Positions 3,404 through 28,413 of a DNA stretch of 42,205 nucleotides are shown here, one piece after another. A program made the position numbers and the translations under genes. The first letter of the stretch is position 1, and each line of letters starts with the position of its first letter. Under the pieces are notes generated by a model, which had not been told where the DNA came from, did not search any database, and was given only the letters and a program-made list of their open reading frames with translations. The stretch is from Octopus sinensis (lineage: Eukaryota): positions 1 through 42,205 of the forward strand of contig NW_021835182.1 of assembly GCF_006345805.1 (NCBI RefSeq), in the 5' to 3' direction.

Positions 3404-3547
3404 GTCCATTAGCCACTGTGCTATTGTAACCGGTTCTCCTTCGGATAGTCGCCATATTAGGAGGTATTATTCTGGCAATCGGTTTCCTCATTACCTCTAA
3501 TGTCAACAAGATAGAATATCTTTACGTGAGTTTCGGACTTATAGGAG
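3404..3547 (+). CDS. SLC16/MCT monocarboxylate transporter, internal exon (TM3-TM4 region), with an in-frame TAA in this assembly
   Basis: Acceptor tctttgcag|GT, donor GGAG|gtaagt, 144 nt, phase 1/1. Reads (G)PLATVL..RIVAILGGIILAIGFLITSNVNKIEYLYVSFGLIG(G), a typical MCT segment. Phase matches the exon at 23067. TAA at 3427-3429. Confidence 0.88.
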
Positions 3548-3605
3548 GTAAGTAGTTTGTTGATTAACTTAGAAACACTCGCTTGCAACACGCGCCACAA
3601 AAACA

Positions 3606-3651
<46 letters not shown>

Positions 3652-3655
<4 letters not shown>

Positions 3656-3790
3656 AGAGTTCACGAAAAAAACAAAAGCCGAAGACAGGTGGTGTACAAA
3701 ACAAACAGATGTATTAGTATAACGCTCAGGAATAGAAAAAGTCGTTTACGTTTCCAGCCTACGCTCTTCTACAGAAAGGAACACAGAAAA
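3652..3790 (-). mobile_element. Short interspersed repeat abutting (TA)n, possibly a Penelope-like terminal repeat fragment
   Basis: Non-microsatellite block set between (TA)n and poly(A)/(CA)n. The minus strand carries a degenerate hammerhead-like motif, CTGTAGAAGAGCGTAGGCTGGAAACGTA. Confidence 0.4.
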
Positions 3791-4149
3791 AAAAAAAACA
3801 CGCACAGACAGACACACACACATATATATATATATAAGGAAATTGATGCTGAGAAATTGGTGCCGATAAGGTTACAATTAGGTTATCTGTTATGTTCACA
3901 AAATATCCTATGATTATGATTGTATTCATTAGTTGTCTGTGGTGGATAGGCTGTGCACCCAGTAGACGTTTCTACTGAAGCACATTACAACCTCATAGCC
4001 TAACTAAAGATCAACTTCTAGAATTTGTTGTCTTATGTCAATGTCAGAAATCAATGTAATTCTCATTGACAGCTCCGTTACAAATACGAAACATTCAAAG
4101 GTTTGTCAGGTAATCTTTGGAGAAATATTTGATTATCTTTCATATTTTA

Positions 4150-4535
4150 TCTTTTACTTGTTTCAGTCATTAGACTGCAGCCATTCTGGGGCACCGCATT
4201 GAAAAATTTTTTGTCGAATGAATCGATTTCATTACTTTTCCATTTTATAGCCGAACCGCTAATTTACGCGGACGTAAACACACGAAGTGAGAGGAAGTGA
4301 GGGACAAAAACAGACACGAAGACACATACATTGATATATATATATATATTATATATATATATACACACACATGACGTGCTTCTTTTAGTTTCCGTCTACC
4401 AAATCCACTCAAAAGGCTTTGGTCGGCCCGAAACTATAGTAAAAAAACGCTTGCCCAAGATGCCCCGCACTGGGACTCAACCCAGAACAATGTGGTTTGG
4501 AAGCTAGCTTCTTACCACACCGCCACGCCTGCGCC
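4150..4535 (-). mobile_element. tRNA-derived SINE (family 2, internal (TA)/(TG) tract)
   Basis: Minus strand head GGCGCAGGCGTGGCGGTGTGGTAAGAAGCTAGC..GGGTTGAGTCCC, body CTTGGGCAAG..GGTAGACGGAAAC, tail ATGACTGAAACAAGTAAAAGA. Same family as 26376 and 30640. Confidence 0.85.
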
Positions 4536-5292
4536 TGACTTTTAATATCAGAATTGAACACACAACTGGCATAATAGATTTAACTTTAAAAGAAGTCCTT
4601 ATATTTTCAATCTGTTTGATAAATTCAATTTAGAATAATTTACGAAGCTAAAAAAAAAAAAGGATAGGATGAAAGGCAAAGTTGACCTCGGCGAAATCGG
4701 AAATCATAAAATAGGCAGCCGGAAGAAATGTCACTAAGCATTTTGTCCGACGTGTTACCGATTTGTGTGCAATATGGTAATGTGGAGGGAGTTCGATTTT
4801 GGTATAGATTGGCTATTACAAATTGGAATATTATGCAAATTTGATGCAAACATATGCAAACGCAGATGAAAAACTGTCTGTATTGAATCAATGGCGCCCA
4901 CGTCGACTGTGGAGAGGGAGAGAATAAAATTTGAATGTTTCGGGACGATTCTTGTAATCAAAGCCTTTTATGGTATTCATTTTTATGCCCTTTTATTTTA
5001 TTTAATTACATATTTATGAATTTTTACGATTGTCTTCTTAGATGCCTCCATTCCCTTGATACTTCTTATCGCTGCCGTTTGGTGGCGCTGCTGTTGGTGA
5101 TAATGTTTTGTTTTGCTTTAATGTTTGGTTTTTTGTTTTCTGTTTAATGTTTCGACTTTCCTAAAAAAAGGTTGGTTTCCCTCCTGGGACCCAACTTCTA
5201 TTTTTATTGACAGTCTGTATTGGGGATGAAATTTAAGTATATATTGGTAACTATATCTTCAAACATCTGCCATTATGTCTATATATGCATAT

Positions 5293-5377
<85 letters not shown>

Positions 5378-5872
5378 GCACACACATACGTATGTATGTA
5401 TGTATAGAATTAGTATATTTTTTATTGTTCTTTAGTTGGCAGAACATTACAAAGGTGACTCAGGGCCAAGTGTTCAGACATATTTGAGAAGCGTCATGCA
5501 CGAAACTTTCACCCCTTAAAGTTTCATCAGAAACATTTAAGCATACACTCAGGGAGGCAATTACCAATGGGAAAACAAATGTATGGAGGGTGGAAATCCA
5601 CGGGCTCCCACTACAAATAAAATTGTACGCATTTTCTTTTCACATTAGTATTCGCCATCCTGTATGTAATGCATACATGTTTTTGTTTTCTCAAATAAAC
5701 TGCACTTCACGTTTGAGGATCTAATGGAACTGTAAGGTATTAGTTAGGCATTCAACCATGAGTCCAACACATAGTGGAAAGAGCAGTAAGCTAATTAAGT
5801 TCAAAAGATAATCCGTTATTCCTTTGGCATTTCTTTTCTTATTCTCACCCTGTACCCGTCTAACACCAAAGT

Positions 5873-6253
5873 GGAGGCGCAATGGCCCAGTGGTTAGGGC
5901 GGCGGACTCGTAGTCGTAGGATCGCGGTTTCGATTCCCAGACCGGGCGTTGTGAGTGTTTATTGAGCGAAAACACCTAAAAGCTCCACGAGGCTCCAGCA
6001 GGGGGTGGTGATCCCTGCTGTACTCTTTCACCATAACTTTCTCCCACTCTTACTTCCTGTTTCTGTTGTACCTGTATTTCAAGGGGCCGGCCTTGTCACT
6101 CTCTGTGTCACGCTGAATATCCCCGAGAACTACGTTAAGGGTGCACGTGTCTGTGGAGTGCTCAGCCACTTACACGTTAATTTCACGAGCAGGCTGTTCC
6201 GTTGATTCGGATCAACCGGAACCCTCATCGTCGTAACCGACGGAGTGCTTCCA
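5873..6253 (+). mobile_element. tRNA-derived SINE (family 3), apparently full length
   Basis: A-box TGGCCCAGTGG and B-box GGTTTCGATTCC in a tRNA-like head, followed by about 300 nt of body. Its tail motif GTGTCTGTGGAGTGCTCAGCCACTT recurs at about 14690 and 31377. Confidence 0.85.
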
Positions 6254-6270
6254 GTCTACACCAAAAGATT

Positions 6271-6594
6271 CCCTTTCGGTCATAAATGACTATAGGATTC
6301 CACCTAGAAATTCCCCCCCCCCCCCGAGGCCAAGTCCAGGCAAGGTTGTTTATAGAAGACCAGCAGTCGCCGGTGCATACCAGCTTCCCCTTTCCATGCC
6401 TCCGATGTTTTCCAAGAGAAAGGCAAAGGCCAAGACATCTTGGCACCAGTGACGTTGCAACTCATTTCTACAGCTGAGTGAAATGCAACAACGTGAAGTG
6501 CCTTGCTCAGGAGCACAACAGACAGTCCGGTCCAGGAATCGAACTCACCACCTAATGATTGTGAGACCAATGCTCTAACCACAGTGCATGCGCC
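6271..6594 (-). mobile_element. tRNA-derived SINE (family 4), tail-to-tail with the previous copy
   Basis: Minus strand TGTGGTTAGAGC (A-box-like), GAGTTCGATTCC (B-box) and CCTGAGCAAGGCACTT core motif. Confidence 0.8.
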
Positions 6595-7118
6595 TTCTCT
6601 CTGTCTCTCTCTCTTTCACATACACACACATATGCATATTCGCAGACATGTGTAATGTGGTGTATATGATGCATTATACAGATCCGAACAACCCGAACAC
6701 ACATCTGCTTTACTTTTACTGCAGTCATCCTTCAACCATCATCACCATCAGCACTAGCACCAGCACCAGCAATCCCTTACACCATCGACAGTAATTCTTT
6801 AACTACCACCACCACCACCGCCACTACAACCACCATCTCCGCTTGACGTGCGTCATTTAACACCGTTTAGCACCATGCAAAACCATTTTAAATGTGGGAC
6901 AACTTCCAATAAAATACGAGCAGATGGTTAATTTGCTTTTAAAAGCCTTCTTCCCCACCCCGGCAGCATCCTCTCGCCACCATCTGCTCACTTTTTTTTT
7001 TATTGATCAGAGCTGAATTATTAAAGATTATAACACTTCTCAATGGTAAAAATGATTTTTACATTATTAAATCGGCCAAATGAGCTTTTAGGTGAGGTGT
7101 TGGTATTATTGTCACTTC

Positions 7119-7153
7119 AAATTATCATTATTATTATTTTCATTATTATTGTT

Positions 7154-7239
<86 letters not shown>
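7119..7239. repeat. (TTA)n microsatellite
   Basis: Direct reading; explains the poly-Ile ORF at 7043..7270. Confidence 0.95.
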
Positions 7240-7248
7240 CCTATTGCT

Positions 7249-7642
7249 GGTGAGCTGGCAGAAACGTTAGCACGCCGGACGAAATGCTTAGCGGCATTTC
7301 GTCTGCCGTTACGTTCTGGGTTCAAATTCCGCCGAGGTCGACTTTGCCTTTCATCCTTTCAGGGTCGATAAATTAGGTACCATTTACGCACTGGGGTCGA
7401 TATAATCGACTTAATCCGTTTGTCTGTCCTTGTTTGTCCTCTCTGTGTTTAGCCCCTTGTAGGTAGTAAAGAAATACGTATTTCGTTTGCCGCTATGTTC
7501 TGAGTTCAAATTCCGCCGAGGTCGACTTTGCCTTTCATCCTTTCGGGGTCGATTAAATAAGTACCAGTTACGCACTGGGGTTGATGTAATCTATTTATCC
7601 TCTCCTCCAAAACTGCTGCCCTTGTGGCAAAATTTGAAACCA
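7249..7642 (+). mobile_element. Nin/Deu-like-core SINE, dimeric (head plus two bodies, 184-nt period)
   Basis: Head GGTGAGCTGGCAGAAACGTTAGC, B-box GGTTCAAATTCC. Core CTTTGCCTTTCATCCTTTC.GGGTCGAT occurs twice, with units starting at 7294 and 7478. Confidence 0.9.
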
Positions 7643-7665
7643 TGATTACCATTCTCATGATTGAA

Positions 7666-7872
7666 GGCGTCGAGCTCGCAGAATCATTAGTGTGTCGGCT
7701 TAGCGGCATTAATCTTCTGGCTACTTGCGTTCCGAGTTCAAATACCGTCAATATTTTTTTTTCATCCTTTTGGGGTCGATAAGATAAAGAACCATTTAAG
7801 TAATAAGGTTGCTGCAATCGAATAAGCCCACCCCGCTAAAAACTGATGGCCTTGTGCCAAAATTTGAAACCA
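7666..7872 (+). mobile_element. Degenerate monomeric Nin/Deu-like-core SINE
   Basis: GGCGTCGAGCTCGCAGAATCATTAG head, TTTCATCCTTTTGGGGTCGATAAG core, CCTTGTGCCAAAATTTGAAACC tail. Confidence 0.75.
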
Positions 7873-8295
7873 TTCTTAATTAGGCAAGAAATCGACATGT
7901 AATCAAAGAAATCATTATTATAACGGGAATAATTATTTAACCATTTAACTAAATACTAAATAAATAGTTAGCTAAATATATAATTTAAGAAACAGTTAAT
8001 TGAATAAAGACTTTCTTAGAAAATCTAAACTATATCCTGTGTAGAGTTTATTTCCATTGGCATAATTTACAAAACTGTTTGAAATATAATATGAACGAAA
8101 GTTATGAGTAAGGTTATTAGTAACACTGTATGCGTGTATGTGTTGCTTGTGCATAGCGTTTGGTGGTGGGAGAGATCTGAATGACTATGGAGGAAGTGAG
8201 ATTGTCGTCATCGCCGAGGTGAATGTCGTCGGCAGCGCTGTCGTTTAATCTTTTATCATCTTTGACACATTAAAGTGTTTCTTAGACTTGATACT

Positions 8296-8646
8296 TATTT
8301 CTTTACTACCCACAAGGGGCTAAACACAGAGAGGACAAACAAGGACAGACACACGGATCAATTCGATTACATCGACCCCAGTGCGTAACTGGTACTTATT
8401 TAATCGACCCCGAAAGGATGAAAGGCAAAGTCGACCTCGGCGGAATTTGAACTCAGAACGTAGCGGCAGACGAAATACCTAGTTCTTTACTACCCACAAG
8501 GTGCTAAACACAGAGGGGACAAACAAGGACAGACAAATGGATTAAGTCGATTACATCGACCCCAGTGCGTAACTGGTACTTAATTTATCGACCCCGAAAA
8601 GATGAAAGGCAAAGTCGACCTCGGCGGAATTTGAACCCAGAACGTA
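8296..8646 (-). mobile_element. Nin/Deu-like-core SINE, headless tandem dimer (184-nt period)
   Basis: Units start at 8296 and 8480 on the + strand; same body and tail as 7294-7477. Confidence 0.9.
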
Positions 8647-8670
8647 GAGAGAGAGATATATATACATATA

Positions 8671-8862
8671 CAGGATGCGGCAAAAGACCCTCCTGCATTT
8701 TAGCGTTAACAAATGTTTCAACAGCAAACGCCCAGTGTGCACCAGTCCAATGCATGATAATAAATAAAGCAAACGGAAGTAAAAGATTAGCAAGGTGAAG
8801 ACACCATTACAATCTGTCTAACATCACTAGTGCCAAATGGGAGGGTTTTCTGCAGAACCCTG
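8671..8862. mobile_element. Tc1/mariner-type MITE
   Basis: TA|CAGGATGCGGCAAAAGACCCTCC ... GGAGGGTTTTCTGCAGAACCCTG|TA: imperfect TIRs of about 23 bp with TA on both flanks. Confidence 0.75.
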
Positions 8863-8885
8863 TATATACATACACACACACACTC

Positions 8886-8922
<37 letters not shown>

Positions 8923-8954
8923 ATATATATATGTTGTATATTTATATAGTTATA

Positions 8955-9000
<46 letters not shown>

Positions 9001-9005
9001 CTATC

Positions 9006-9039
<34 letters not shown>

Positions 9040-9259
9040 GAGGGTGCGGCTGACGTAGCGCCCTTTTGTATTTGAGTTTTCTAATTTCTAATTGAGTTTC
9101 CTTTTCATTTCCTAAAACTTCTGTGATTTTTTTCATTAGTTTATTATTCGTTTCTTTAAGTAATGCAATAAATTTGTGTTCAATAAAAAATTACTTAATA
9201 AACATATATATACCATAAAAGTTGTTAAATGCGAAAGACGTCACTTCTGTCGCATCCTG
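9040..9259. mobile_element. Older Tc1/mariner-type MITE
   Basis: Left end GAGGGTGCGGCTGACGTAGCGCCCTTTTGTATTTGA versus reverse-complemented right end CAGGATGCGACAGAAGTGACGTCTTTCGCATTTAA. Confidence 0.6.
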
Positions 9260-9350
9260 TTTGATTTATGTTAACATATAAAAAGGAAATACGTGTATTT
9301 ATGTATATAGATGTATGTATATATGTATTATACACATATATGTTTGCACG

Positions 9351-9381
<31 letters not shown>

Positions 9382-9445
9382 CACACACACACCACACACA
9401 CACACACACACGCACACACACACACATGTACACATATTCTATAAC

Positions 9446-9610
9446 TATTTCTTTATTGCCCACAAGGGGCTAAACATAGAGGGGACAAACAAGTACAGAC
9501 AAACGAATTAAGTCGATTACATCGACCCCAGTGCGTAACTGGTACTTAATTTATCGACCCCGAAAGGATGAAATGTAAAGTCGACCCCGGCGGAATTTGA
9601 ACACAGAACG
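9446..9610 (-). mobile_element. Nin/Deu-like-core SINE, single headless unit
   Basis: Same body and tail as 8480-8646. Confidence 0.85.
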
Positions 9611-10178
9611 CAGCACATATATATTCTATAACATTCACATCGCCAATTAACCAGTCCATTCCATTCCGTACACGACCAGTATATTTTAATTCTTGTTCTT
9701 CACAAAGTACAAAAAACACCACTTAGGCTAGTGTAAATATATTTATTCCCATTATTGAGATATCATTCAACGATATTTAACCTAATTTACCATATTTTAA
9801 AACTGTTACTTTAAGTTCTGGTGTTGTATGTTGGAGATAAAGCTAGAGGGAGGGGGAGCTTTATATTTACGAATCTTGTTTCATGAATAAGAAAACCGTC
9901 TGAAAGACAAATATAGTAAAACAAAAACAGTGTGAACGTCTACACACACACACACACACACACACACAACATATATATACACACACACACACACAACATA
10001 TACACACACCGCACACACAATACACGTATGTATTACATAACGTACATATATTTTATATAAAATATACATAATAAAGGCACTTTATGTAATATATATATGT
10101 GTGTGTTTGTGTGTATTTATATATTACATGCATATATGTATGTAGGTATACAAACACACGCACGCGTTTGTATTGGGT

Positions 10179-10209
<31 letters not shown>

Positions 10210-10424
10210 GCAGATTTTGACAATAATTTTGTTGATTTAACCCTCCTCTCCCGTTTATAAAATTAGTTTTTCATTTGGTTTCTCATTTTTTTTTAAGGTG
10301 TTTTCTTTTTCATTTTCCAATTTTATTTTGCTGCATTTTATTTTCTGACACTTTATAGTTTCTACCTCGATAGTTACAAAAATAATACGAAACAGAACAG
10401 ACTAAAAAAAAAACACACACAAAC

Positions 10425-10464
<40 letters not shown>

Positions 10465-10962
10465 GGGGGAGGACTCACAGCCAAATTGTTTGGTAGTAGA
10501 ATGAGATTAAATTCTCACACATAAAATAACACATCATAGAAGATACGAACAAATAAAAGAGAGAGATCTATTCTATTCAAAATTCTACTTGGCCTGCATG
10601 TGTGTGTGTTACTTTAAGATGAGCAGTGCTGGTTAGGTCTTTCTACTATACGCTACTTTGTAACCAACATGGCGGCTCTCCCCAAATAAGCGAGTCAGAC
10701 AAACAAACGTAACGTACATCTCTGTAAACCCAAAACAAACAACTGAATTAGGAATTGCTCAACGATGTTTATTTCTCACCGACACAGAACACGCTTCTCA
10801 TGTTAGTCACATTAAGTATGGTGGCCATTTAGGTTACTACCGTTTACAGTCTATCTTGAATAAGCCAGACCGGAAGATGTATCACACCGCCATTTTAGAA
10901 GCATCAGTCTTGGGTCGGTACTTCATTCACGTATAAATCTCATAGTATGTTATCAATAATGC

Positions 10963-11014
<52 letters not shown>

Positions 11015-11072
11015 CTATCTATCCATCCATCCATCCATCCATCCATCCATCCATCCATCCATCCATCCATCC

Positions 11073-11126
<54 letters not shown>
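10963..11126. repeat. Compound (TATC)n(CATC)n(TATC)n microsatellite
   Basis: Direct reading; a similar compound repeat lies at about 32158-32262. Confidence 0.95.
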
Positions 11127-11127
<1 letters not shown>

Positions 11128-11271
11128 GGTCTGTCTGTGTTTATATAAGTGCGTACGTATATATATATGCATGTGTGTGTGTGTGTGAGTGTGTGTGTGT
11201 GTGTGTGTGTAACAGTTTGTAAAGAACCTTTTTTATCTGGAAGCGTCGAAAGTGTTTCGTATTCTACAGAC

Positions 11272-11425
11272 AAGGAAGTAACATTTCGAACGCACCACAG
11301 CCATCAAAACAGTAGAAAGATTGGGTATTCCCCACGTGCTGGTAACTTTTTCCTTCTCATAAGGGTAAATACCCAATCTTTCTACTATTTTCACGGCTAT
11401 AGTGCGTTCGGAATATTGCTTTCTT
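11272..11425. repeat. Imperfect inverted repeat (about 58-bp arms)
   Basis: 11272-11329 pairs with 11368-11425, including AGTAGAAAGATTGGGTATT / AATACCCAATCTTTCTACT. Mismatches are almost all transitions. Confidence 0.85.
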
Positions 11426-11439
11426 AGCTTTCTTATCTG

Positions 11440-11479
<40 letters not shown>

Positions 11480-11752
11480 GCGAGAAAGAAGCAACAAGAA
11501 TGGATAAGTTTTTAGTACAATTTCCAAAGTTCATTTAATGAACTTTGGAAATCTGTTTATGTTACTTAATTATCTACATTACTTCATGAGTATAGCCTCA
11601 ACCACCAAGATGTCTAGAGAACTCACATGTATTTTAGCTGATGAGTACGGGACACGTTTATATGCTGCAATTTTTGCAACTTTTAATAAAGCCTGTCCTT
11701 GTATGAAACGATTGTACTAAAAACTTATCCATTCTTGTTGCTTCTTTCTCGC
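11480..11752. repeat. Perfect 42-bp inverted repeat enclosing a 31-nt palindrome and a hammerhead motif
   Basis: 11480-11521 (GCGAGAAAGAAGCAACAAGAATGGATAAGTTTTTAGTACAAT) is the exact reverse complement of 11711-11752. 11521-11551 reads TTTCCAAAGTTCATT-T-AATGAACTTTGGAAA. Confidence 0.95.
11632..11722 (+). ncRNA. Type I hammerhead ribozyme (minimal stem III, Penelope/retrozyme-like)
   Basis: Stem I TTTTAG/CTAAAA; core CTGATGA (11638-11644); stem II GTACGGGACA/TGTCCTTGTAT with a long structured loop; GAAA (11705-11708); stem III AC-GATT-GT; cleavage triplet GTA (11714-11716). Confidence 0.75.
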
Positions 11753-12380
11753 TTATAATCACCCCACATTACTGTATTGTTAAAACCGTATAGTTTTTTG
11801 GTGCATCTAAGTTAGGTACCATTTTCAAGTAAATTCATTTAAATTGACTTGAATCTTTATTGCTTTTTATATATATATATATATATGGAGATAGTAAAAA
11901 AAGTGTCTTGTTTACAGTTTCTGTGATTCCTTTTCCGTCGTATGTAGGGACTTTCGCTTGTAACGGCATGTTTCGGAATCCGGTGTATTTATAATTTTTT
12001 CCGTGAACGGATCTGATTTTTGATTCTTTAAAGTACTTGTGACGTCTTATTTTTCTGGTGCTTAAGTTTGTCGTTATGCCTGGTTGGCTTCCCAGTGGGG
12101 AACGGTCATCAGCCGTTCCAGTTGGTTGATTCTCTTAAAGGGTCAGCTTGTTGTAATTGCCGAAGTTCGGTTTTGAGGTAGAATTTCATTGGACTAGAAT
12201 TAAGTGACGTCAGCAACTGGTGTTTGTATTGTACTCTTGTATGGTGATTTTGAGTTGCGGTTTCGAAACCCGCATGGAAAACTGTTAAATTATGCCTGTT
12301 GTATCTGGTTGCTTTTGTTTTTTATTTTCTTGGAGAAATTAGGTCTTTTTTCTTTTTCTCTGCGGCGTTTTTTCTTCTTT

Positions 12381-12714
12381 CTAAAGGATATTCACCTGTG
12401 GTTTATATTTTTTAATGAGCATGTTTTCCTTATTTAAACGGAATTGGGTTGAAATGTTTCCGATGCATTAATAGAGAGGGAAAATTTGGTATTTCAGATT
12501 TATGTTTGCAAAGCATTGGTCTAGGCTTACGGGAATTTTCCTGGTCGTGGGGTCGCAGATTTGTTGTCTGTGAACCGTTTGTCTGTCCCTCAAGGTCAAA
12601 CTAGTTTTACTTGTGTACTCTCCACCACACCATCCACATTTGAGAACATAGATTAAGTTCTTCGAAGCAGAGGTGAAGTGATTTTAATATGGTAAAATCT
12701 TAACCTGACTTAAA
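12381..12714 (-). mobile_element. Penelope-like element remnant, C-terminal GIY-YIG endonuclease (pseudogenised)
   Basis: Manual translation: SKNLIYVLKCGWCGGEYTSKTSLTLRDRQTVHRQQICDPTTRKIPVSLDQCF..KYQIFPLY*..RLNKENMLIKKYKPQVNIL*. Shows the NLIY..C..C...Y, R.R..H, KE...I and P..N pattern of PLE GIY-YIG domains. Absent from the ORF track. The presumed 3' region continues to (TA)n at about 11887. Confidence 0.85.
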
Positions 12715-13896
12715 TTTGTATGCTGATCCCTCTAAGAGGAAGATGCAAGTCCCGCAGTTAGGGCGGTTGCACTTTTTGACTAGTGGGGTTGTATTTTTGG
12801 CGGGTAATTTGGCGCTAGTCCCTGCACACATTTCTCATCGATCACTACTGACACTACTGAATTTTAACAAGATTATCCACAATTTTCATATTATTGAATG
12901 TTATGAACATTTAAATCATATTTCATATTATTGAAACTTGTAACCATTGAAATTTTTAAACATGTTTTTCTAATTCATTATTTGAAATTTTTACCATTGA
13001 GAAACAAAAAGTATTGTTGAAACTAGTTTTGTATGTATGTGTGTATGTGTGTAAATAAATTTATTCAAAAACAATTACAAGTCTTTCAAACTTAGGTGCA
13101 TTTTCAACAACAAATTTTCTTATATTTTTTCCTGCATGGGAATACATCTCCTCCTCTGTTATATATATAACGATATATTCATTCATAAACTCACATGTGT
13201 CCCTGTAAACGTATCTAATAAAGCTCTATGTAAACATAATCTTCGGCAGCTGTAAACAAATTAAATTTATGTTAATGAATTCTTAATTATTTCTAATTAA
13301 TTATTCTATTTTATTTAACCACATGCAGCAACACGCTTTATTTAGAGTCATCACATATAATAACAAAATATGTAACAAAGTCCACTTATCCAAACGTATC
13401 CACACCATTTTGTTTATATTTTAATATTTTATTTCCCAGCGTCGAAGCTCCTATGTAATTTATTTATTTAACTGTTTATATTTTACTCAGACATGTATGG
13501 ATATTTTGACGTATGTCCCAGAGGAGAGTGGTTACATTTTCCATAATCCAGTCCTAACCCTAATGAAGTGTTATCCGTATTAAATCTACTGTATCTGTTG
13601 TGTAATCGTAAAATGAGAAATATAGTTATTACGTGAGCAATAGGATCTATATAGGTCACTAAGTCACTCACAAAACATTATGTGTGCGATAATACAGTAA
13701 CCTTGTTTTATGTTCTATCATTTTTCGAAATCTTCAAATACATATTGGGGCGAGTCTTCGAGGCCGGAGTGTCATTGAACAGAGAGAAATTCCGTACATC
13801 TGATACATTTTTCTGGTGTAAAATACGTTTAGCAGCTCATGAAGTGGGGGAAAATTAGATACCAACAGTATATAGACAACGCTGAAATGAGACAAT

Positions 13897-14374
13897 GGGG
13901 TGCGGTTGTGTGGACACTGACGATTTGGCACGACTTTTGATGTCAGTACATTTTGGCAGCCGATTTTGGTGTCGTTACTTTTTGGCACTGGAAGCAAACA
14001 CACACACACACACACACACACCACACACACACACACATACACACACACACAAATGCAGAAATATATATACATACAGATAGAAATAGTGAGGGAGACGGTG
14101 AAGAAGAAAGAGAGAGACTGTACAATTCATAAATTAGACACGATTGACATAAACACTTTCCATCTCACACACATAAAGAGAGAAAGGGGTAGATAGACAG
14201 AGATAGAGGGGTAGAAAGAGAAAAGAAGATGAAAACAGAGAGGGAGAGAGACGGAATAGGAGTGAACGAGAACGAGAGAAGCGTTAAAACGTCTGAGGTC
14301 AAATAGGTCAGTGTCGAATCTACGGCGCCAAATAAGCATCGCCAAAACAGCTGTGCCAAAACGTTTCATACTCC
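13897..14374. mobile_element. Possible foldback-type DNA element with repetitive inverted ends
   Basis: The left end has iterated TTTGGC(A)-like motifs (13910-13990) and the right end has iterated GCCAAA-like motifs (14281-14374) at roughly 15-nt spacing. The middle is microsatellite. Confidence 0.4.
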
Positions 14375-15076
14375 TATAGTAAACTCCAGTTATTCTAGTG
14401 ATCAGCTCTAGGTCTGTAAGGTGCGATAAAAATGCTTTGTAGCAATATTTCACTCACTACCTATCAGCAATTCACCAAGTGTATTTACCTACAGCAAATT
14501 TGGAGGATTAGAAATTATCATTTTAGTTTAGTTACTAACGAATTAATGAACAACTATAATCTCGAGTTGACCTAAAGCCCTTCAATGAAATTATGTGGAT
14601 GAAAACTGCATGGTAGCGCTCCTGATGATTGTACTTGTAATTCAAAAGGTACAGCTTTGTCATCGCGTTAATTCTGCTTGAGAGTACAAGTGTCTGTGGA
14701 ATACTCAGCCATTTATACAGTAAGCCTTAGTGTTTAAACAGGCCATATCTGACCCCAAATATTAACTCTACGATATCATTTTAAAAATTAACTCTACGAT
14801 ATCATTATAAAAATTAACAGTTAGCTCATCAAAATCTCAACGCTGTAAGATAATGCAGGATTAATTCAAAGCAATGTGAATAACAAAAAAAATACATTTG
14901 ACAGAATAATGTGAAAGCTAAAAACTTAATGCGGAAGCAAGTAAAGCAATTGATTTGGACAAGTGAATCTTCTTCGTCGATCAACGGAGATCCACCACCA
15001 TTTTCACTTTAACCAGATCTTTTTTCGGTTTTGCTTTGTGAACTTTTCGTTCTTTTTGCCGGGAGATGTGTAAATG

Positions 15077-15139
<63 letters not shown>

Positions 15140-15560
15140 CGTCTGTATGTTTGTGTGCGTTTGCGTGTAATGGTACCCTTAATTAATCAATTGGCCATTC
15201 CCATGACGGCAATAACGGGTCTTAGTGTTACTGAGTTAATTCTTCAGGAATGGCCAGCTACCGCTGCTAGACGCAAATTTCGATGTAACAGCAACCGACT
15301 AATTATTATATTATTTACATGGAGTTTCAAGTCCCATCTGACTGTGAACACAAACTTTGGCTTCCTTGGATAGAAGAACTTGACACTAATTAATGAACCA
15401 ACCAGGTTTATCCGGTTCCTAACTGTAACGATTTGATGGTTCGGCAAGTGGAACTGAAATTGAAGATTAAATATCCTGTCTACCGGTAATAATAATAATA
15501 ATAATGATAATAATAATAATATAATAATAATAATAATAATATAATAATAATAATAATAAT

Positions 15561-15772
15561 CCTTTCTACTAAAGGCACAAGGCATGACATTTTCGGGGAG
15601 GGGACTAGTCGATTACATCAACCCCAGTGTTTCAATGATACTTAATTTATCGACTCCAAATTGATGAAAAGCAAAGTCGACCCCGTCGGAATTTGAACTC
15701 AGAACGTTAAGACGGACGAAATGCCGCGAAGCATTTCATCCTGCGTGCAAACGATTCTGCCAGCTCGCTGCC
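15561..15772 (-). mobile_element. Nin/Deu-like-core SINE, monomer with (TTA)n tail
   Basis: Minus strand GGCAGCGAGCTGGCAGAATCGTTTGC head, GTTCTGAGTTCAAATTCC, GTCGACTTTGCTTTTCATC core; adjoins (TAA)n at 15487-15559. Confidence 0.85.
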
Positions 15773-15775
15773 ATT

Positions 15776-15814
<39 letters not shown>

Positions 15815-15819
15815 ACTAT

Positions 15820-16225
15820 TAGTACAAGGATGGCGGACGAGAGTACATTACATTTACAAAGCGCAAAAACGAAGGAAGTTTACTTAAAAACAAATACCAG
15901 AAAACAATTATGGAAAACAGCATATAAAAGAGGGGAATTGAAACATCCACAATAAGGGGTCGCTATCTGGGGTCAAAGAGAAAATTCACATACTTTTGAT
16001 TCCCCCTTCATTGCAATGCTCTCCGGGTCAATGGTGTGCTCTGGGAGGTTGGCCCTTTCGCTGAGCCCATTCATGCCAACTTTCGCGCCCCCCCCACCTC
16101 TCGGCAAATTTACTGCTGAGCTGTACGTACGTCTTAATTCTAAATATCCTCCTCTCGTAGTGGTAAGTGAAGGAGTTAATGGGGCAGCCTGGACGAAGAG
16201 GAGTATCCCTTTTCCAAAATAATGC
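15820..16225 (-). mobile_element. Possible heavily degraded LINE 3' end (L1/Tx1-like)
   Basis: GC-richer block ending in a T-rich UTR-like tract and a trinucleotide tail on the minus strand. The family assignment is from loose recall only; there is no clean reading frame. Confidence 0.3.
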
Positions 16226-16562
16226 AGAATTTAAGTTACGACCTCAGGTGAAAGAAACTCTTTGTTAAATATTAAATTCTCGACGTGACATTACGAGAAC
16301 GCAAAATCAATATTCGACAGATTATGGAAGACAATAAAATTGATATACAATAATAAGACGATTGTTTAATAAATTGAAGGGAATTCTAGCAATATAATTA
16401 AAAAGTAACTAGTAAATATTATTAGTACGATAAAAGAACAGATAGATATTTATTACTAAAAATCTACGAAATAAGAGACCGTAAAAATAGAGAAAATAGT
16501 ACTACTACTACTACTACTACTAATAATAATAATAATAACAACAATTATTATTATTATTTTTA

Positions 16563-16611
<49 letters not shown>

Positions 16612-17348
16612 GATAACAAACTTAAATTAAATAAAGTACTTAGAGATAATATTTACGAAATATAGGGATTGATATGAAGAAAAAAATATGAACGATATTA
16701 AATTTCAAAAGTTTAGAAATTCGAAGATATAAGTAAATATTTTAACAGAATCCATAAAAAGTATGGAAGACAATGAAAATAAATTTAATATAAATCAATG
16801 GAACAGTTTTGTAAGATGACAAGGGAGATTTATTAAGATATTAAGAAATAATTATTAGATAATTTTGGTGCAAAGAGAGGAAATTCATATACTTGTTGAG
16901 ACAGAATTTACAAAATGTAGAGTTTGATATCAACAAGAAAAATATTAAATTAAAGATTAAAGGTTCAAATATATAAGTAAATAGCGAATAGGTTATAATG
17001 GAAGATAAGATTAATATTATCTAGTATTGTAGATTAAGATAGATTAAAGCATAGAAGGTAAGTATAAGGAATAACAATATTAATATGCATACATTAAATA
17101 TTCTTTAAAATACATAATTATAGTTATAATACAGGTAAATACGCAAAAAAATATTTTTATACCTAAATATTGTATAAACATTATTAATATCTAAAAAATG
17201 TCCAAATATGAATCGTTATTGTATTCAAAGAGGTGGGACTCACTATATAAATAGTTAAATACAATTACTATGGTTATGGTTATAAATAATAATTACTAAT
17301 AAGAAGTGAAACTACCAATAAGCATAAGGCAATAGAAAAATAATCATA

Positions 17349-18014
17349 TACCACCACCATTGTTACCACCACCACAACTACAATCAGCAGCGTCTCCACC
17401 GTGGCCATCATACCTGTTTCAAGTATTTTAATATCATCCCCTTACCTTAACCTCAAATATCAAAGGTCTACAGTGGAGAACACACTATAACCACCAATAC
17501 CACTACCACCACTACCATCATCATCATCACTACAACAACCAACACTGCTAGCCTCTACATCACCAACATCATCATTATCATCACCACCGCCATCATCGTG
17601 AATATTAACGTTATTCTTCGCATCATCATCATCATCATCTTCATCTTCATCATCATCATCATCATCAACATCATCATCATCATCTTCATCATCATCATCA
17701 ACATAACCATCATCATCATCAACATCATCATCATCATTTTCATCATCATCAACATCATCATCATCATCATCATCAACAACAACATTAGACGCAGCAGCAA
17801 CGTATTCTCTACCATTATAATCATTTTGTTATCATCATCATCATCATCATCATCATCATCGTCATCGTCAAAACCAGCATCACTACATCATCGTCATCCT
17901 CCTCCAAGACCACCACCACCACCACCATTATCGTCATTATTGTCCCTATAATTATCAGTCATCATAATCATCATCAACATTATCATCATCATCATCATTG
18001 TAGTTGTCGTCGTC
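17349..18014. repeat. (CAT)n/(CAC)n low-complexity tract
   Basis: Direct reading; explains the poly-Met, poly-Ile and poly-Ser ORFs. Confidence 0.95.
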
Positions 18015-18307
18015 AAACTTATCAATTACAATATTTTCAGGAAATAAAATTTCCCAAAAATTCTACAAGGCTATATTTAAGAAAACTCAAGTATTGTTGA
18101 CGCCATATTCCCAGAAGGTATTGCATTATGGGCCAGTCATGAAGATCAAACAGAAAAATCAACTTTATTGCTTAAACACACTGACACGTCTTTTTTTAAA
18201 CACGTCTACACAAAATTTATATAGACGCAAGCTGACACATACACGCACATCGTTATATACGCACTATACATTGACACGCTGGATTCGGTTACTCACACTT
18301 GCGAAAG

Positions 18308-18311
<4 letters not shown>

Positions 18312-18394
<83 letters not shown>

Positions 18395-18535
18395 TATATA
18401 TATATATATACTTATATATAATATATATACATTATATATATATATATATATAATATACATATATATAATATATATATACCTTATAATATATATATATAAT
18501 ATATATATATATAACATATATAATAATATATATAC

Positions 18536-18574
<39 letters not shown>

Positions 18575-19162
18575 TATAATAATATATACATTTATATATA
18601 TACATATATATAATATTATATACATTTATATATATATATATACATATATATAATATATATATACATTTATATATATATATTACATATATATAATTATATA
18701 TACATTTATATATATATATATACATATATATAATATAATATACATTTATATATATATATATATACATTTATATTATATATATATATACATTTATATATAT
18801 AATATATACATATATATAATATATATATACTTTATATATAATATATCTATACATTTATATATATATATATATATACATTTATATATCTATAATATATATA
18901 TATATACATTTATATATATATATATATATCATTTTATTATATATATTATATATATATATCATATATGTATATATTATAATATACATTTATATATATGTAT
19001 ATATTATATAATATATATATATACATTTTATATCTGTATATATATATATATACATTTATATATATTATATAATATATAATATTATATATACATTTATATA
19101 TTATATATCTAATTTATATATATATATATATATACATTTATATATATATATATATATACATT

Positions 19163-19193
<31 letters not shown>

Positions 19194-19232
19194 TTTATAT
19201 AATATATATATATCTATATATAATATATATAC

Positions 19233-19270
<38 letters not shown>

Positions 19271-19497
19271 TATATATCTATATATATATATCTATATATA
19301 TATATATCTATACATTTATCTATATATATATATATATATACCTTTATATATATATATATTATATACCTACATTTATATATCTATATATATATCTCTATAT
19401 ATATTACATTTATTATATCTAATATATATCACCTTATCTATATATCTATCTATATATACCTTTATATATATATATATCTATATCTATGTATATATCC

Positions 19498-19531
<34 letters not shown>

Positions 19532-19933
19532 TTATATATGATATATATATATATCTATTCTACTCCGATAATATATTTATATTTTATCTTATCTCTATAT
19601 AATATTAATATATATACCTTTACATATCTATATATATATATACTTATAGATATACATTTATACATTTTATATAATATATACATTTCTATATATCTATATC
19701 TAATATCTTTATATTATATATACTATACTTTATATACTATATACATTTATATCATATATATATATATTATATATATATAACATTTATTATATATATACAT
19801 TCTATATATATATACATTTATATCTATATATACATTTATATATATATCTATATATCTATTTATATATCTACTACATTTATATATTTATATATCTATATAT
19901 ATATATGATCCATTTATATCTTATATATATATA

Positions 19934-19965
<32 letters not shown>

Positions 19966-20038
19966 CTTATTATATATATATCTTATCTATATATCTATAT
20001 ATCTATATATATAAAAAATATATGTATATATATATATA
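18312..20038. repeat. About 1.7-kb degenerate (TA)n array with recurring TACATTTATA units
   Basis: Direct reading; explains the YIYI ORFs. Confidence 0.95.
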
Positions 20039-20827
20039 GGCATCGATATTTTCTTTCATGCTGGAAAGATAAAAATACATTATACCTAAATAAGTATGTG
20101 TAAAGAAAGAGAAAAAGAGAGAGAGAGAGAAAGGGGAGACAGACAGACAGAAACAGCGGGTGGAAAAGCGAGATAGATTGACAGATACACACATACATAT
20201 ACTCACGTATGTTTGTGTGCATGTATAAGTATTATACGTATTTAAATATATGCATAGACGCGCTCACACGCAGACGCAGACACAGACACACACATTGATA
20301 TGAAAAGCTATTATTTCATTTTATATTCCGCCCAAGCTGCCTCAAATTCTAAACGCTTTTCTATTCTTACATCTTGACAAATAATTAATTGTAGACGAAA
20401 GCTTAGAAACGTAAGAAAGACACACAAACATAGAGATACATGCATAAATGTGTGTGTTTGAGTTAAAATATGTGTAGGTATATGTTTGTATGCATGTGTA
20501 TATATCTGTCTATAGATATAGTTATCAATATATCAATACGTGTGTGTGTGAGTATGTAAGTTTGTGAGTGTGTGTGTTTGTGTGTATGTATCACTACGTC
20601 GTCCAGACTATCGAATGTTGCTATATATCGCTGGTCACAATGCACTTCCTCGCACTGTTATAACTTTCGAATGATAACACCTCGCTTGCTAGGCGGGCAG
20701 GCCTATTTTCTCCATCATGGAGCTATGTAAAATGAAGTATCTTGCTCAAGAACACAACGCACAGCCGGTCAGAAAACCGAAACTATGATATTGCGATCAT
20801 CTGTGCAACGACCAAATCATACGCGCC

Positions 20828-20862
<35 letters not shown>

Positions 20863-21099
20863 TATATGTATGTGTCGTGTTCCGGCTTAATTTGCCGACT
20901 CTTTATGTCTCCTATTTTCAGGAACAGCTTGATATACTGGTGAACAATCAATAACATTGTAGAGCATAAAGATTAAAATTGTAGTTGAGAAATAGGTAAC
21001 TGACGTGGTGGACGGTAAGCAATTTGAATATTGGAAAAGAATTACCTGTATCTTGAAGAATTACCTGTATCAAAACACTGACAATCATGACTGAACACC

Positions 21100-21543
21100 C
21101 ACTGATAACCCACGGAGGGTGATTCGACGATTTCCCCTCACAGCTGCACGCACATCTGCGATGTTTTTCTCAATTCTGTTGATTGCGGGACTCCTAGAAC
21201 GCTCGTCAATATCGACATTTTTTCGGTCATCTTGAAAACGTCTGAACTACTCGTACACTGTGTGCGACTAAAACACTCCTCTCCATACACTTTCTACAAC
21301 TCTCTGTAGGCTTCTGAACAGGTATCGCCATGACAAATTTATCTCTCATGGTCAATGCGACGATCACACGCTACACACTTTCCTTTCAAGCACTACTGTA
21401 AACAGCAGGAGTGAGTTAGAACGTGAAAGTTTAGTGTGCATGCAAAGCAGAGTTCGAACTCAGTCTGTGCCAAGCCGTTTCACTCAGCATACTTTAGCTT
21501 CGTTACTATGGCAACAGTCCGGATACTTATTGATCAGACCTAG
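21100..21543 (-). mobile_element. Mariner-family transposon, 5' remnant (TIR plus HTH region)
   Basis: Minus strand TA|CTAGGTCTGATCAATAAGTATCCGGACT TIR. Disrupted translation GDTCSEAYREL*KVYGEECFSRT..VYE*FRRFQDDRKNVDIDERSRSP..NIADVRAAVRGNRRITLR, a mariner N-terminal HTH pattern. Confidence 0.85.
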
Positions 21544-22194
21544 TATCTGTCAAATTTAGCCCAAACACCCTGTTGTGTGTATACACACACACACACACAC
21601 ACATACACGTGTGTGCCTGTTTGTGTGGGGTTTGTGGATACGTGTTTACGCACACACACACACACACACACACACTCTCTCTCTCTCTCTCTCTCTATCG
21701 GTTACAGTGAACTCGACTCCGGTAGAATATATAGGAGCAATACTTCAATAATACTTTCCTACGCACAACAGCCCCATTCATCCCGTAAGAACATATGTAT
21801 TTATATATGGTTGTGTGTATCTATGTGTTTGTGCGTGATTCAGTGTTGTGTGTGTGAGTAAATTTGTGTTTTTGTTTAAATACTTTCAAAGGAAATACAT
21901 CAAGGAAAACAAACCACAGCCCGCTTCCGGATTAAACACTTCCGAATATATTGCTTATTTTTCTTTTGGAGCGCCTGTATTTTTCTTTCAGGTTTTTTTT
22001 TTCTTTTTATTACTCCATTTTTTTTTATTGTTGTATAGAAAAATAAGGGGCTATGCCCTTGGCATTGAGATTTGTGGGAGAATAAGGGAGAAGCTATCGT
22101 GAGACAGGTTATTGAGCCCTAACGTTCGCAACAGAAGGGGTTGCAGTATCACTGATGGCATGCACTGCTTTCTCACTCAATAATAATGATGATG

Positions 22195-22239
<45 letters not shown>

Positions 22240-22264
22240 GTAATTTCAAAATAATAATAATAAT

Positions 22265-22910
22265 GATGATTTAAAACTGTTCGCGAAAACAGAGCCTGAA
22301 ATGGAGAGGCTGGTTGAGACTATGCAAACGTGCAGCAAGGATATAGGGATGGAATTCAGTATCTCGAAGCATGCAGTGCTTACTCTGAAGCGGGGGAAAA
22401 GAGTAAATTGTAGGGTCATAGAATTGCCAAACGGAGAGAGAATGGATGGGTAACAAGTACTTTGAGATCATAAAGCTGGAAAATATCTTGAAGAAAGAAA
22501 TGAAAAACAAGGTCGTCACTGCATGTTTCAAGCGCCTTAAACTGCTCTTGAAATCAAAACCCAACTCAAGGAGCCCTGTGACTGTCATCAAGATATGGGC
22601 AGTTGCTGTAGTCCGCTATAGTGCACCCATCCTGAAATGGGTTCAAGCAGAGATTAACCAATTCGATCGCACAACCCGAAAGACAATGACAATGCACGGT
22701 ACCTTCCACCCCAAGGCTATCCATGAAGAGAGGTAAAGGAGGGCGTGAGCTGATTAGCGTATGGGAATGCATCAGCGGTGAATGAAGAAACATGGCAGAA
22801 TATTTGGTAAACAGCAAACAAGACCTGCTACAGTATGCTGCTAGAGCAGAAGGAGTTAACAAAATTGGACTTGAGAGTGCTCATGAATTCCAATCAAGAA
22901 CAGCCAAAGT
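22265..22910 (+). mobile_element. Dong/R4-clade non-LTR retrotransposon fragment (end of RT and thumb), frameshifted
   Basis: DDLKLFAKTEPEMERLVETMQTCSKDIGMEFSISKHAVLTLKRGK, then KYFEI..WAVAVVRYSAPILKW..DRTTRKTMTMHGTFHPKA..KGGRELISV. Starts directly after (TAA)n at 22179-22264. Confidence 0.85.
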
Positions 22911-23066
22911 TATTCTGTCGTTTGTTCATTCTTACATTCTTTCACTTTTTTTATTCTTTCACTCCCCTATTCTGTTATATTCGATTATAACTTCACATAA
23001 ACCAATACCCATTTATTTCAATGTGATTTTACTGACATCTTGTTTTGTTTTTTTTTTCATTTTCAG

Positions 23067-27386: not shown

Positions 27387-28413
27387 TTCTGGATATCCTG
27401 CAACTCTTCCGTCGGGGCTCCTTGATTAAGTTGGTGAGTGCTGCCATAACCTTTGCTTTCAGTTCATCTTTGGTGTTACAACTGCGCTCCACACATAATA
27501 ATCAAGGAGGTTGCAGCCTGGGGAGTTAGGTGACCAAATGTTAGAGGTGGTGTGGTCACAGAAATTGTCTTACAGCCATAACATAGGGTCTTCCAGCAGT
27601 CACCCTCTTGACCCAGGGCAGCACTACCTCCTCCAGGCACTTGATGTAGGTCTCCGTGTTGAATTTGAGGCCGTGTGGGAAGTTGAATGGAGGCATAGCG
27701 TCGCCATCGCTAGTGATCACTCCAAACACCATGATGTTGACTGGATGTTTGGTTTTTATCAATCAAGGTACATGTTTTGGTGACACGGAAAGCCAGCTGT
27801 TGTTCTTTCTGTGTGTTCACCATCTGATCCTTGCAGAAAATTTTTTAGTCTGAGAAAAACCCAAGCATGTTCGGTAGCATGGTCTTTCCTCTTGTCCTCG
27901 ATGGCTTGGGATAAAAATTGGCCCTTTCTCTTCTTCTATGAGGAATACCGGATGTCTTCATGCACCTCACAAGAAACTCAGACACTTTCATGTTCCTGGC
28001 GATGGACCTGATTGACTTGGAGGGATAGTTGTCAATCATGGTCTGGATCTTACGAACAAATTCAGGAGTTCTTTTCTTATCAGAACGATCAGAGTGAGTT
28101 TTCCAAGCTGCCGTACCTTCGTAATCATCATTAGACTCATCCAACTCTTTCCGAATCCTCTGCACTGTCCTCAGATTGACACTCAAACACTCTGAAATGT
28201 TCGTTTTGGAGCTTCCGGTGCGAATGCCAAGAAGTACAGTATGTCGTTTCCAGATTTCTGGCAGAGTGAATTGCGTTATGATGCTGTTTTTCTTACAAGA
28301 CGATGCCCAACTGACTCTACAATACTATGTACCCGACAAAATCAAAAACAAACAATGCACATGCACGAAATTAAAAAATATATAAAATGGCGACAATTTA
28401 CCTATCGCACCCT
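27387..28413 (-). mobile_element. Tc1/mariner-superfamily transposon (probably DD37D/maT-like), transposase pseudogene
   Basis: Fragments VNLRTVQRIRKEL..PSKSIRSIARNMKVSE, KHPVNIMVFGVITSDGDAMPPF.FPHGLKFNTETYIKCLEEVVLPWV, IWSPNSPGCNLLDYYVW and CNTKDELKAKV. The third catalytic motif ends in D. TIR-like TAGGGTGCGATAGGTAAATTGTCGCC at the right end beside (TA)n. Confidence 0.9.

Follow-up and report, generated by a model that had tools for sequence, protein, structure and literature searches.

Introduction

Penelope-like elements (PLEs) carry hammerhead ribozymes whose role has been called unclear (Craig et al., 2021, PMC8557442; Frangieh et al., 2024, PMC11167929). For PLE hammerheads of the palindromic-stem-III type, monomers do not cleave and dimers do so only weakly (Cervera and de la Pena, 2014, PMC4209133). 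In Poseidon of Anolis, hammerhead cleavage is protein-assisted and dispensable for insertion in vitro, and the tail of the element lies between two reverse transcriptase (RT) start sites (Frangieh et al., 2024, PMC11167929). The Hydra clade of PLEs is defined by the diagnostics RWK, DKT, a CxCX5C linker and a GIY-YIG domain with CxxC and CxH (Craig et al., 2021, PMC8557442). Self-cleaving hammerheads are also found in the 5'-UTRs of chrysoviruses and fusariviruses, where they promote cap-independent translation (PMC13725137).

The motif analyzed here lies in an intron of Octopus sinensis. It resembles the minimal PLE hammerheads in that it is of type I, resides in a pseudo-LTR (pLTR), has a palindromic helix III and is predicted to act as a dimer; as in that description, the motif mostly stands alone in a truncated copy or is paired with one on the opposite strand at a distance of 100–700 bp (Cervera and de la Pena, 2014, PMC4209133). 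The helix II called "larger than usual" there has 6–8 bp, whereas the one described here is a multi-segment domain of 60 nt. Non-LTR retrozymes likewise contain a type I hammerhead and are related to PLEs, but they are short tandem repeats without an ORF, whereas the copy studied here is probably a truncated autonomous element (PMC7229834; bioRxiv 10.64898/2026.07.22.740005).

Intronic hammerheads raise a further comparison. The conserved intronic hammerheads of the amniote type are single-copy, are kept at an orthologous intron and have a stable helix III for monomer cleavage. The octopus motif differs from them in having more than 1,000 near-identical copies and a 2-bp stem III.

The hammerhead and its insertion

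The whole stretch analyzed, hereafter the window, comprises 42,205 nt (assembly GCF_006345805.1, contig NW_021835182.1, forward strand). Its relevant features, with the evidence for each in brackets, are as follows.

3548–23066, plus strand: 19.5-kb intron of an MFS/MCT-type transporter gene, holding the insertion in sense (tblastn of protein P0001, splice sites)
11442–11478, no strand: (TA)n microsatellite, left flank of the insertion target (sequence; paralogues flanked alike)
11480–11521, minus strand: inverted pLTR piece, exact reverse complement of 11711–11752 (42/42 identical; predicted pairing about 1.0)
11520–11552, no strand: fold-back palindrome at the 5' truncation junction (sequence, self-match)
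11534–11868, plus strand: sense 3' pLTR fragment of a 5'-truncated Hydra-type PLE (paralogue identity, ORF linkage)
11632–11637, plus strand: hammerhead stem I, 5' strand TTTTAG (sequence, covariation)
11638–11644, plus strand: hammerhead core CTGATGA, i.e., CUGAUGA, C3–A9 (sequence)
11645–11704, plus strand: helix II domain of 60 nt, closed by G10.1-U11.1, with an apical hairpin at 11664–11680 (folding, covariation)
11705–11716, plus strand: core GAAA (11705–11708), 2-bp stem III with GATT wobble-palindromic loop, U16.1 (11715) and A17 (11716) (sequence)
11717–11722, plus strand: hammerhead stem I, 3' strand CTAAAA, completing a 6-bp stem (sequence, covariation)
11728–11740, plus strand: 13 nt able to pair with the sequence around the ORF start codon in full-length copies, the partner being missing from the truncated window copy
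11753–11868, plus strand: "tail" between the two preferred insertion 3' ends, part of the 5' leader of the element (ends of 56 copies)
11869–11886, no strand: (AT)n microsatellite, right flank of the insertion target

A sequence-only reading of the window had proposed a type I hammerhead with intact core, 6-bp stem I, extended stem II and 2-bp stem III, and every listed element was found to be present. Helix II is built of 4 bp, a bulged U and 6 bp, followed by TTTAT/ATAAA and TGCAA/TTGCA pairings. The 10.1-11.1 pair is G-U, not G-C, and cleavage is predicted after A17, at 11716/11717. The octamer of stem III, ACGATTGT, is fully self-complementary when G-U pairs are counted and could form an 8-bp duplex of −5.8 kcal/mol, which agrees with the dimer-type palindrome suggested in the same reading. 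When both strands were scanned, the hammerhead geometry occurred once in the whole window.

The fold of 11625–11730 alone was no better than that of shuffled sequences (z −0.71), and helix II folded alone gave a z of −1.8 against shuffles. In the isolated monomer, the predicted probability was about 0.4 for stem I and 0.015 for stem III; all folding energies in this work are nearest-neighbour estimates at 37°C. An Rfam search of the window returned no hammerhead at the gathering threshold and none among 28 weak matches, which agrees with the earlier description of the motif as unannotated; it is probably missed on account of its long helix II.

A search of the octopus genome itself (2.72 Gb) yielded 1,586 candidates, and the 40 that were scored are 96–99% identical over 11534–11830. 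The copies end in (TA)n, have variable 5' truncation points and are often accompanied by an inverted partner. Among 56 copies selected by BLAST, the 3' end lay at 11757 in 16 copies, at 11876–11878 in 39 (a count that includes AT microhomology) and elsewhere in one. Measured from the cleavage site, these ends fall at about +36/+41 and +152/+162. The two preferred ends thus delimit a tail of about 116 nt, compared with 30–40 nt in the described Hydra PLEs (Craig et al., 2021, PMC8557442). Both are 3' of the cleavage site, which means that the template RNAs ran through an uncut site. This arrangement is like that of Poseidon, in which two RT start sites 3' of the ribozyme define the tail and templates span the uncut site (Frangieh et al., 2024, PMC11167929).

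Other repeat remnants were observed in the window. Immediately 5' of the insertion, at 11268–11429, there is a long imperfect inverted repeat (74% identity) with weak matches to miRNA models, probably a remnant of another repeat. On the minus strand at 11887–12830 lies an older, broken Penelope-like fragment with a CNRPNCGTC zinc-finger linker and a GIY-YIG-like stretch (513 candidates, 74–85% identity), which we take from its motif to be Neptune-like. A minus-strand CTGATGA at 12112 was rejected as a hammerhead; it is the conserved hairpin loop of the older element and lacks GAAA. A helix-turn-helix fragment resembling a DNA-transposon transposase occurs on the minus strand at 27845–28324 (weak Pfam HTH matches below the cut-off).

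Genomic abundance and covariation

The pattern core-N48-68-GAAACGATTGTA matched the genome 1,222 times and the reversed control not once. Further patterns with a helix II of 36–68 nt gave 6,203 matches versus 12 and 3,001 versus 4 in the reversed controls, and a helix II of 67–97 nt with a looser stem III gave 8,877 versus 141. About 19,000 pattern matches with a 36–97-nt helix II were obtained in total; for a 6–35-nt helix II there were 5,471 versus 24. Closer examination covered only the pattern matches inside fetched loci.

Stem I, which no pattern required, averaged 3.3 bp in 116 distinct motifs forming 32 sequence clusters, against 0.94 bp with swapped flanks (maximum of 2.03 in 2,000 swaps). 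At least four stem I pairs were present in only 14 of the 32 cluster representatives, and many of the older-family copies listed have a broken stem I. The proximal helix II averaged 3.9 against 1.15 at the cluster level. In 22 hand-picked alignable sequences, 92.8% of the cells were paired, compared with 26–50% in slid controls; two-sided change was found in 6 of 19 pairs, and the apical 7-bp hairpin was 93.5% paired. The two-sided pair count was equalled in 36 of 500 shuffles, a figure that is not a probability because the 22 sequences are related. Unaided RNAalifold recovered the proximal helix II and the apical hairpin, and did not recover stems I and III.

Within family A, one apical pair was C-G in 48 cases, U-A in 23, U-G in 15 and C-A in none, although overlapping loci may repeat copies. 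Private changes in this family, with shared variants set aside, were no rarer in the core than elsewhere (core 2/672; 5' flank 43/4,868, of which 28 are in two shared columns). Across the 32 clusters, the 10.1-11.1 pair was U-U in 11, A-U in 6, G-U in 5, G-C in 5 and another combination in 5, a looseness also seen in published Hydra motifs (Craig et al., 2021, PMC8557442). G10.1-C11.1 is therefore rare here relative to the minimal PLE hammerheads (Cervera and de la Pena, 2014, PMC4209133), and U at 11.1 is shared with several published Hydra families, whose type I hammerhead likewise lies near the 3' end (Craig et al., 2021, PMC8557442).

Across families, covariation is thus seen in stem I, in the proximal part of helix II and in the apical hairpin, the test among paralogues that the sequence-only reading had proposed. 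The hammerhead motif occurs far beyond chance despite its unremarkable fold when taken alone.

The parent element

Walking upstream at two loci (L031 and L032) revealed a reverse transcriptase, an Asn-rich linker, a Cys motif, a GIY-YIG-like C-terminus and a 1.5-kb 3' UTR with a sense hammerhead. At three others (L094, L095 and L096), two hammerheads stand about 4.6 kb apart with the ORF between them. The full-length layout is pLTR (hammerhead), 209-nt leader, RT/GIY-YIG ORF, long 3' UTR and pLTR (hammerhead), with the ATG of the ORF 209 nt 3' of the first cleavage site.

The ORF shows the traits of the Hydra clade: RIRWK (RWK) and ADKTG (DKT in place of DKG), a linker CKCRIKSKC (CxCX5C) followed by NVIY..YIG, recognized by motif only and lacking the linker motif in L228, and a C-terminus CQLC..E..N..CVH (CxxC..E..N..CxH). 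Insertion into (TA)n, partial tandems, the inverted 5'-truncated copy and the tail are also traits of this clade. Pfam matched none of four ORF pieces to a family, so the assignment of RT and endonuclease rests on motifs and on similarity to proteins P0003–P0006. In a quick ORF tree without an outgroup, the relatives include two loci (L249 and L285) whose hammerheads match the published Penelope-1_NV and Hydra-1_aMil by eye.

The element shares RWK, DKT, the CxCX5C linker, GIY-YIG with CxxC and CxH, and (TA)n targets with the Hydra-clade PLEs (Craig et al., 2021, PMC8557442). The unit differs in its length of 4.6 kb, with an Asn-rich linker and a 1.5-kb 3' UTR, from the less than 3 kb typical of described Hydra families, which is a trait of those families and not a diagnostic. 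The published octopus family Hydra-1_Obim is different, with a 2.5-kb unit, a 7-bp stem II and another ORF (Craig et al., 2021, PMC8557442).

Besides a PLE origin, the sequence-only reading had allowed for a retrozyme, and the window motif could in principle be the monomer of a non-LTR retrozyme, a small tandem repeat giving rise to circular RNA. A type I hammerhead with a palindromic stem III would suit such an origin, and a separate tandem family with units of about 598 bp and a long helix II is present in the genome. The window family, however, is dispersed, with variable 5' truncation and inverted partner copies, and runs without a break into an RT/GIY-YIG ORF. No tandem unit exists at the window locus either, and a retrozyme is extremely unlikely. 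The PLE half of the proposal was borne out by the linkage of the copies to an RT/GIY-YIG ORF with flanking hammerheads. We therefore regard the motif, with considerable confidence, as the type I hammerhead of the 3' pLTR of a 5'-truncated Hydra-type PLE copy, which probably works as a dimer in tandem transcripts of the element and is predicted to be inactive in the intron.

In the life cycle proposed for this PLE, two ribozymes of a tandem transcript would associate through their palindromic stem III and cleave in dimeric form. Dimer or protein-assisted cleavage would free unit-length RNA, possibly circularized. Two RT start sites within the leader domain would set the ends of the tail, as suggested by the Anolis element.

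Several related loci deserve mention. At four places (L170–L173, G000:C29), an identical Hydra-element 5' end including the leader forms the N-terminal part of the ankyrin-repeat protein P0002 from the database, which is either an artificial fusion in the gene model or the result of exonisation of the element. A lineage with an 85-nt helix II and a leader of more than 480 nt (L226, L227, L237 and L324) has intact ORFs of 947 aa and is likely to have been active recently. The tandem arrays with units of about 598 bp (L321:1206-5990 and L322; G000:C1:18221705-18225984 and C1:36727731-36731395) contain a type I hammerhead with an AT-rich helix II of 69–76 nt and a GTAC palindrome, and are likely a non-LTR retrozyme family.

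The host intron

The sense orientation of the motif within an MFS/MCT intron, as previously claimed, is supported by exon homology and GT/AG splice sites: the flanking plus-strand exons lie at 3404–3547 and from 23067, GT is at 3548 and AG at 23065–23066 (by homology), and the downstream exon has an MFS_1 match. Exon 3404–3547 contains two compensating one-base shifts leading to an in-frame stop relative to P0001, which may be an assembly error or a damaged allele.

The ribozyme might cut this intron co-transcriptionally, alone or in trans with a transcript of the abundant family, and thereby affect the host gene. The sense orientation, the intact core, the youth of the copy (96–99% identical to its paralogues) and the thousands of potential trans partners in the genome speak for this possibility, but the window contains a single hammerhead and the copy is undistinguished from others. 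Moreover, the inverted piece at 11480–11521 covers the cleavage site and the 3' strands of stem III and stem I. In the fold of the whole insertion, it pairs across the cleavage site with a predicted probability of about 1.0, placing the site inside a 42-bp antisense duplex, and the probability of stem III falls from 0.015 alone to 0 in context. Forcing the hammerhead fold would cost a predicted 18.6 kcal/mol in the whole insertion, compared with 7.0 kcal/mol in the sense copy alone. In a growing transcript, the predicted probability of the antisense duplex is already 0.85 at 11722. Within the pre-mRNA of the MCT gene, the cleavage site would thus be captured by the 42-nt antisense piece 5' of it before the hammerhead folds. 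In 8 of 24 sequencing runs, none of them recorded as RNA and some only guessed to be so, all data were contigs, which show neither ends nor strand; some of these contigs bridge the cleavage site, and one run yielded nothing.

Because the hammerhead is a lone monomer facing a 42-nt antisense to its cleavage site, cutting of the intron is unlikely; the predicted folds indicate that the window hammerhead probably does not cut it, and an effect on the host gene by this route is improbable. A cut within an intron need not block splicing in any case. The position in the intron is likely incidental, since the hammerhead lies within the end repeat of a very common element. The proposal that the intron harbors a separate RNA system cutting the pre-mRNA was accordingly not upheld, given more than 1,000 near-identical copies, a single hammerhead in the window and a site buried in the predicted duplex.

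Length of helix II

The helix II domain was 51–85 nt long throughout the four deep ORF lineages examined, compared with about 11–27 nt in the published Hydra table (Craig et al., 2021, PMC8557442) and 10–29 nt in 50 non-octopus hammerheads found in 78 metagenome loci of related ORFs. The length is not wholly unprecedented, as the published table of PLE hammerheads includes one plant motif with a long loop 2 (Craig et al., 2021, PMC8557442). The stem II that had been called unusually long is indeed so beside published and non-octopus Hydra hammerheads, but it is the common form in its own genome. In the quick ORF tree without an outgroup, ten own-genome ORFs with 51–85-nt domains were separated from 23 others at a branch with an SH-aLRT of 100; shared host ancestry alone would equally give this split.

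A very abundant family with a short, 16-nt helix II (L318–L320 and L326; G000:C1) has the same GATT/AATT stem III and forms opposite-strand pairs. No link to an ORF was found at the loci of this short-helix family (L318–L320, L325 and L326).

It is almost as probable as not that the length of helix II reflects tolerated growth, that is, AT-rich duplications in a loop pointing away from the core, with pairing kept only for core folding and the extension itself functionless. Such growth would concern the extension only and is compatible with a PLE ribozyme. It would account for the wide variation between families, whose helix II measures 16, 23, 26, 37–44, 51–60, 69–76 or 85 nt, for the small duplications visible in some of them and for the fact that short-helix families, too, are abundant (5,471 matches); moreover, only 15 of the 32 representatives have a helix II that outperforms its shuffled versions (z below −1.5). 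On the other hand, the 7-bp apical hairpin persists across families through changes on both sides of its pairs (93.5% paired), pairing survives in each of the three variants shared within helix II of family A, and the length of 51–85 nt is maintained in all four deep ORF lineages examined. The latter findings suggest that the long helix II may be a structurally maintained extension.

Natural type I hammerheads can therefore have a helix II of 50–97 nt. Since short-stem descriptors and Rfam miss the window motif, ribozymes are likely to be greatly undercounted in genomes of this kind.

The leader and the predicted start-codon helix

In lineage A, a stretch of 13 nt at +11 is perfectly complementary to the sequence around the ORF start codon. 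Lineages D, E and G each use matching sequences of their own for this duplex, and a cross-lineage pairing matrix is block-diagonal. The duplex was beaten by only 0–57 of about 650–700 background windows in 12 of 13 copies. Lineage D was weaker, with 14–57 of 700 background windows as good, and the helix was not detected in L222, where 269 of 700 were as good and the first Met looks altered. Lineage G and the copies L228, L238 and L170, examined only once the idea had been formed, agree with it and show changes on both sides of pairs (C-G to U-A in L228 and L170). The 14 leader copies represent four deep lineages and are not independent cases.

At least nine Watson–Crick pairs running through the AUG were found in 8 of these 14 copies; none of the 22 metagenome copies reached this number, and 4 of the 249 internal ATGs did. 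With G-U counted, all 14 have at least eight. The median predicted probability that the AUG pairs far upstream was 0.99 here versus 0.13 in the metagenome copies, with one low value (0.19) in L232. A second helix just 5' of the AUG has 8–11 complementary pairs in 11 of 14 copies, with sequences differing by lineage. The ORF starts 186–263 nt 3' of the cleavage site, and more than 480 nt in one lineage. This position differs from that in Poseidon, whose ORF begins inside the ribozyme (Frangieh et al., 2024, PMC11167929), in that the start codon stands downstream, behind a structured leader.

Two candidate explanations were rejected. Release of the AUG by cleavage did not agree with folding, in which the AUG was paired at 0.93–1.0 with or without the upstream ribozyme in four of four leaders; this result speaks against a simple switch. 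A spliceosomal intron in the leader, suspected from L095, was dismissed as the candidate AG is missing in L187, L179, L186 and L170. In the non-octopus Hydra leaders (L240–L317), a GCTC..GAGC hairpin is shared after an AT-rich stretch 3' of the hammerhead, near the (TA)n copy ends, and is possibly a conserved RT start structure.

According to these predictions, the leader would fold into a domain closed by the AUG helix and holding both RT start points, which would likely limit or gate translation. The enlarged, covarying helix II and the AUG-enclosing leader are well supported as structures. A literature search turned up neither long-helix-II hammerheads in cephalopod PLEs nor a start-codon helix in PLE leaders, with subscription papers, Repbase entries and bioRxiv supplements outside its scope. 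A self-cleaving ribozyme 5' of an ORF start is also known from the chrysovirus and fusarivirus 5'-UTR hammerheads (PMC13725137) and the R2 HDV-like ribozymes. The viral hammerheads differ in having a long helix III, a helix II of 6–8 bp that is called "long" there and monomer action (PMC13725137). The passages of that source on viral ribozymes mention no start-codon helix. The octopus leader may have a translational role.

Biological significance

The window locus is ordinary, being one dead copy among thousands. The inverted end left by PLE insertion provides a ready-made antisense lock, which may explain why sense intronic copies are tolerated. The covarying start-codon helix is a concrete structure that ties the ribozyme region to the starts of translation and reverse transcription. 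As a tentative proposal that we consider rather unlikely as a whole, the octopus Hydra sub-clade might have evolved a ribozyme–leader module, in which a 50–85-nt helix II and a covarying leader that locks the AUG and encloses both RT starts would let the RNA alternate between the roles of messenger and template, or would allow the 5'-OH product to be translated without a cap. If true, this module would offer a directly testable handle on the long-standing question of the purpose of PLE hammerheads.
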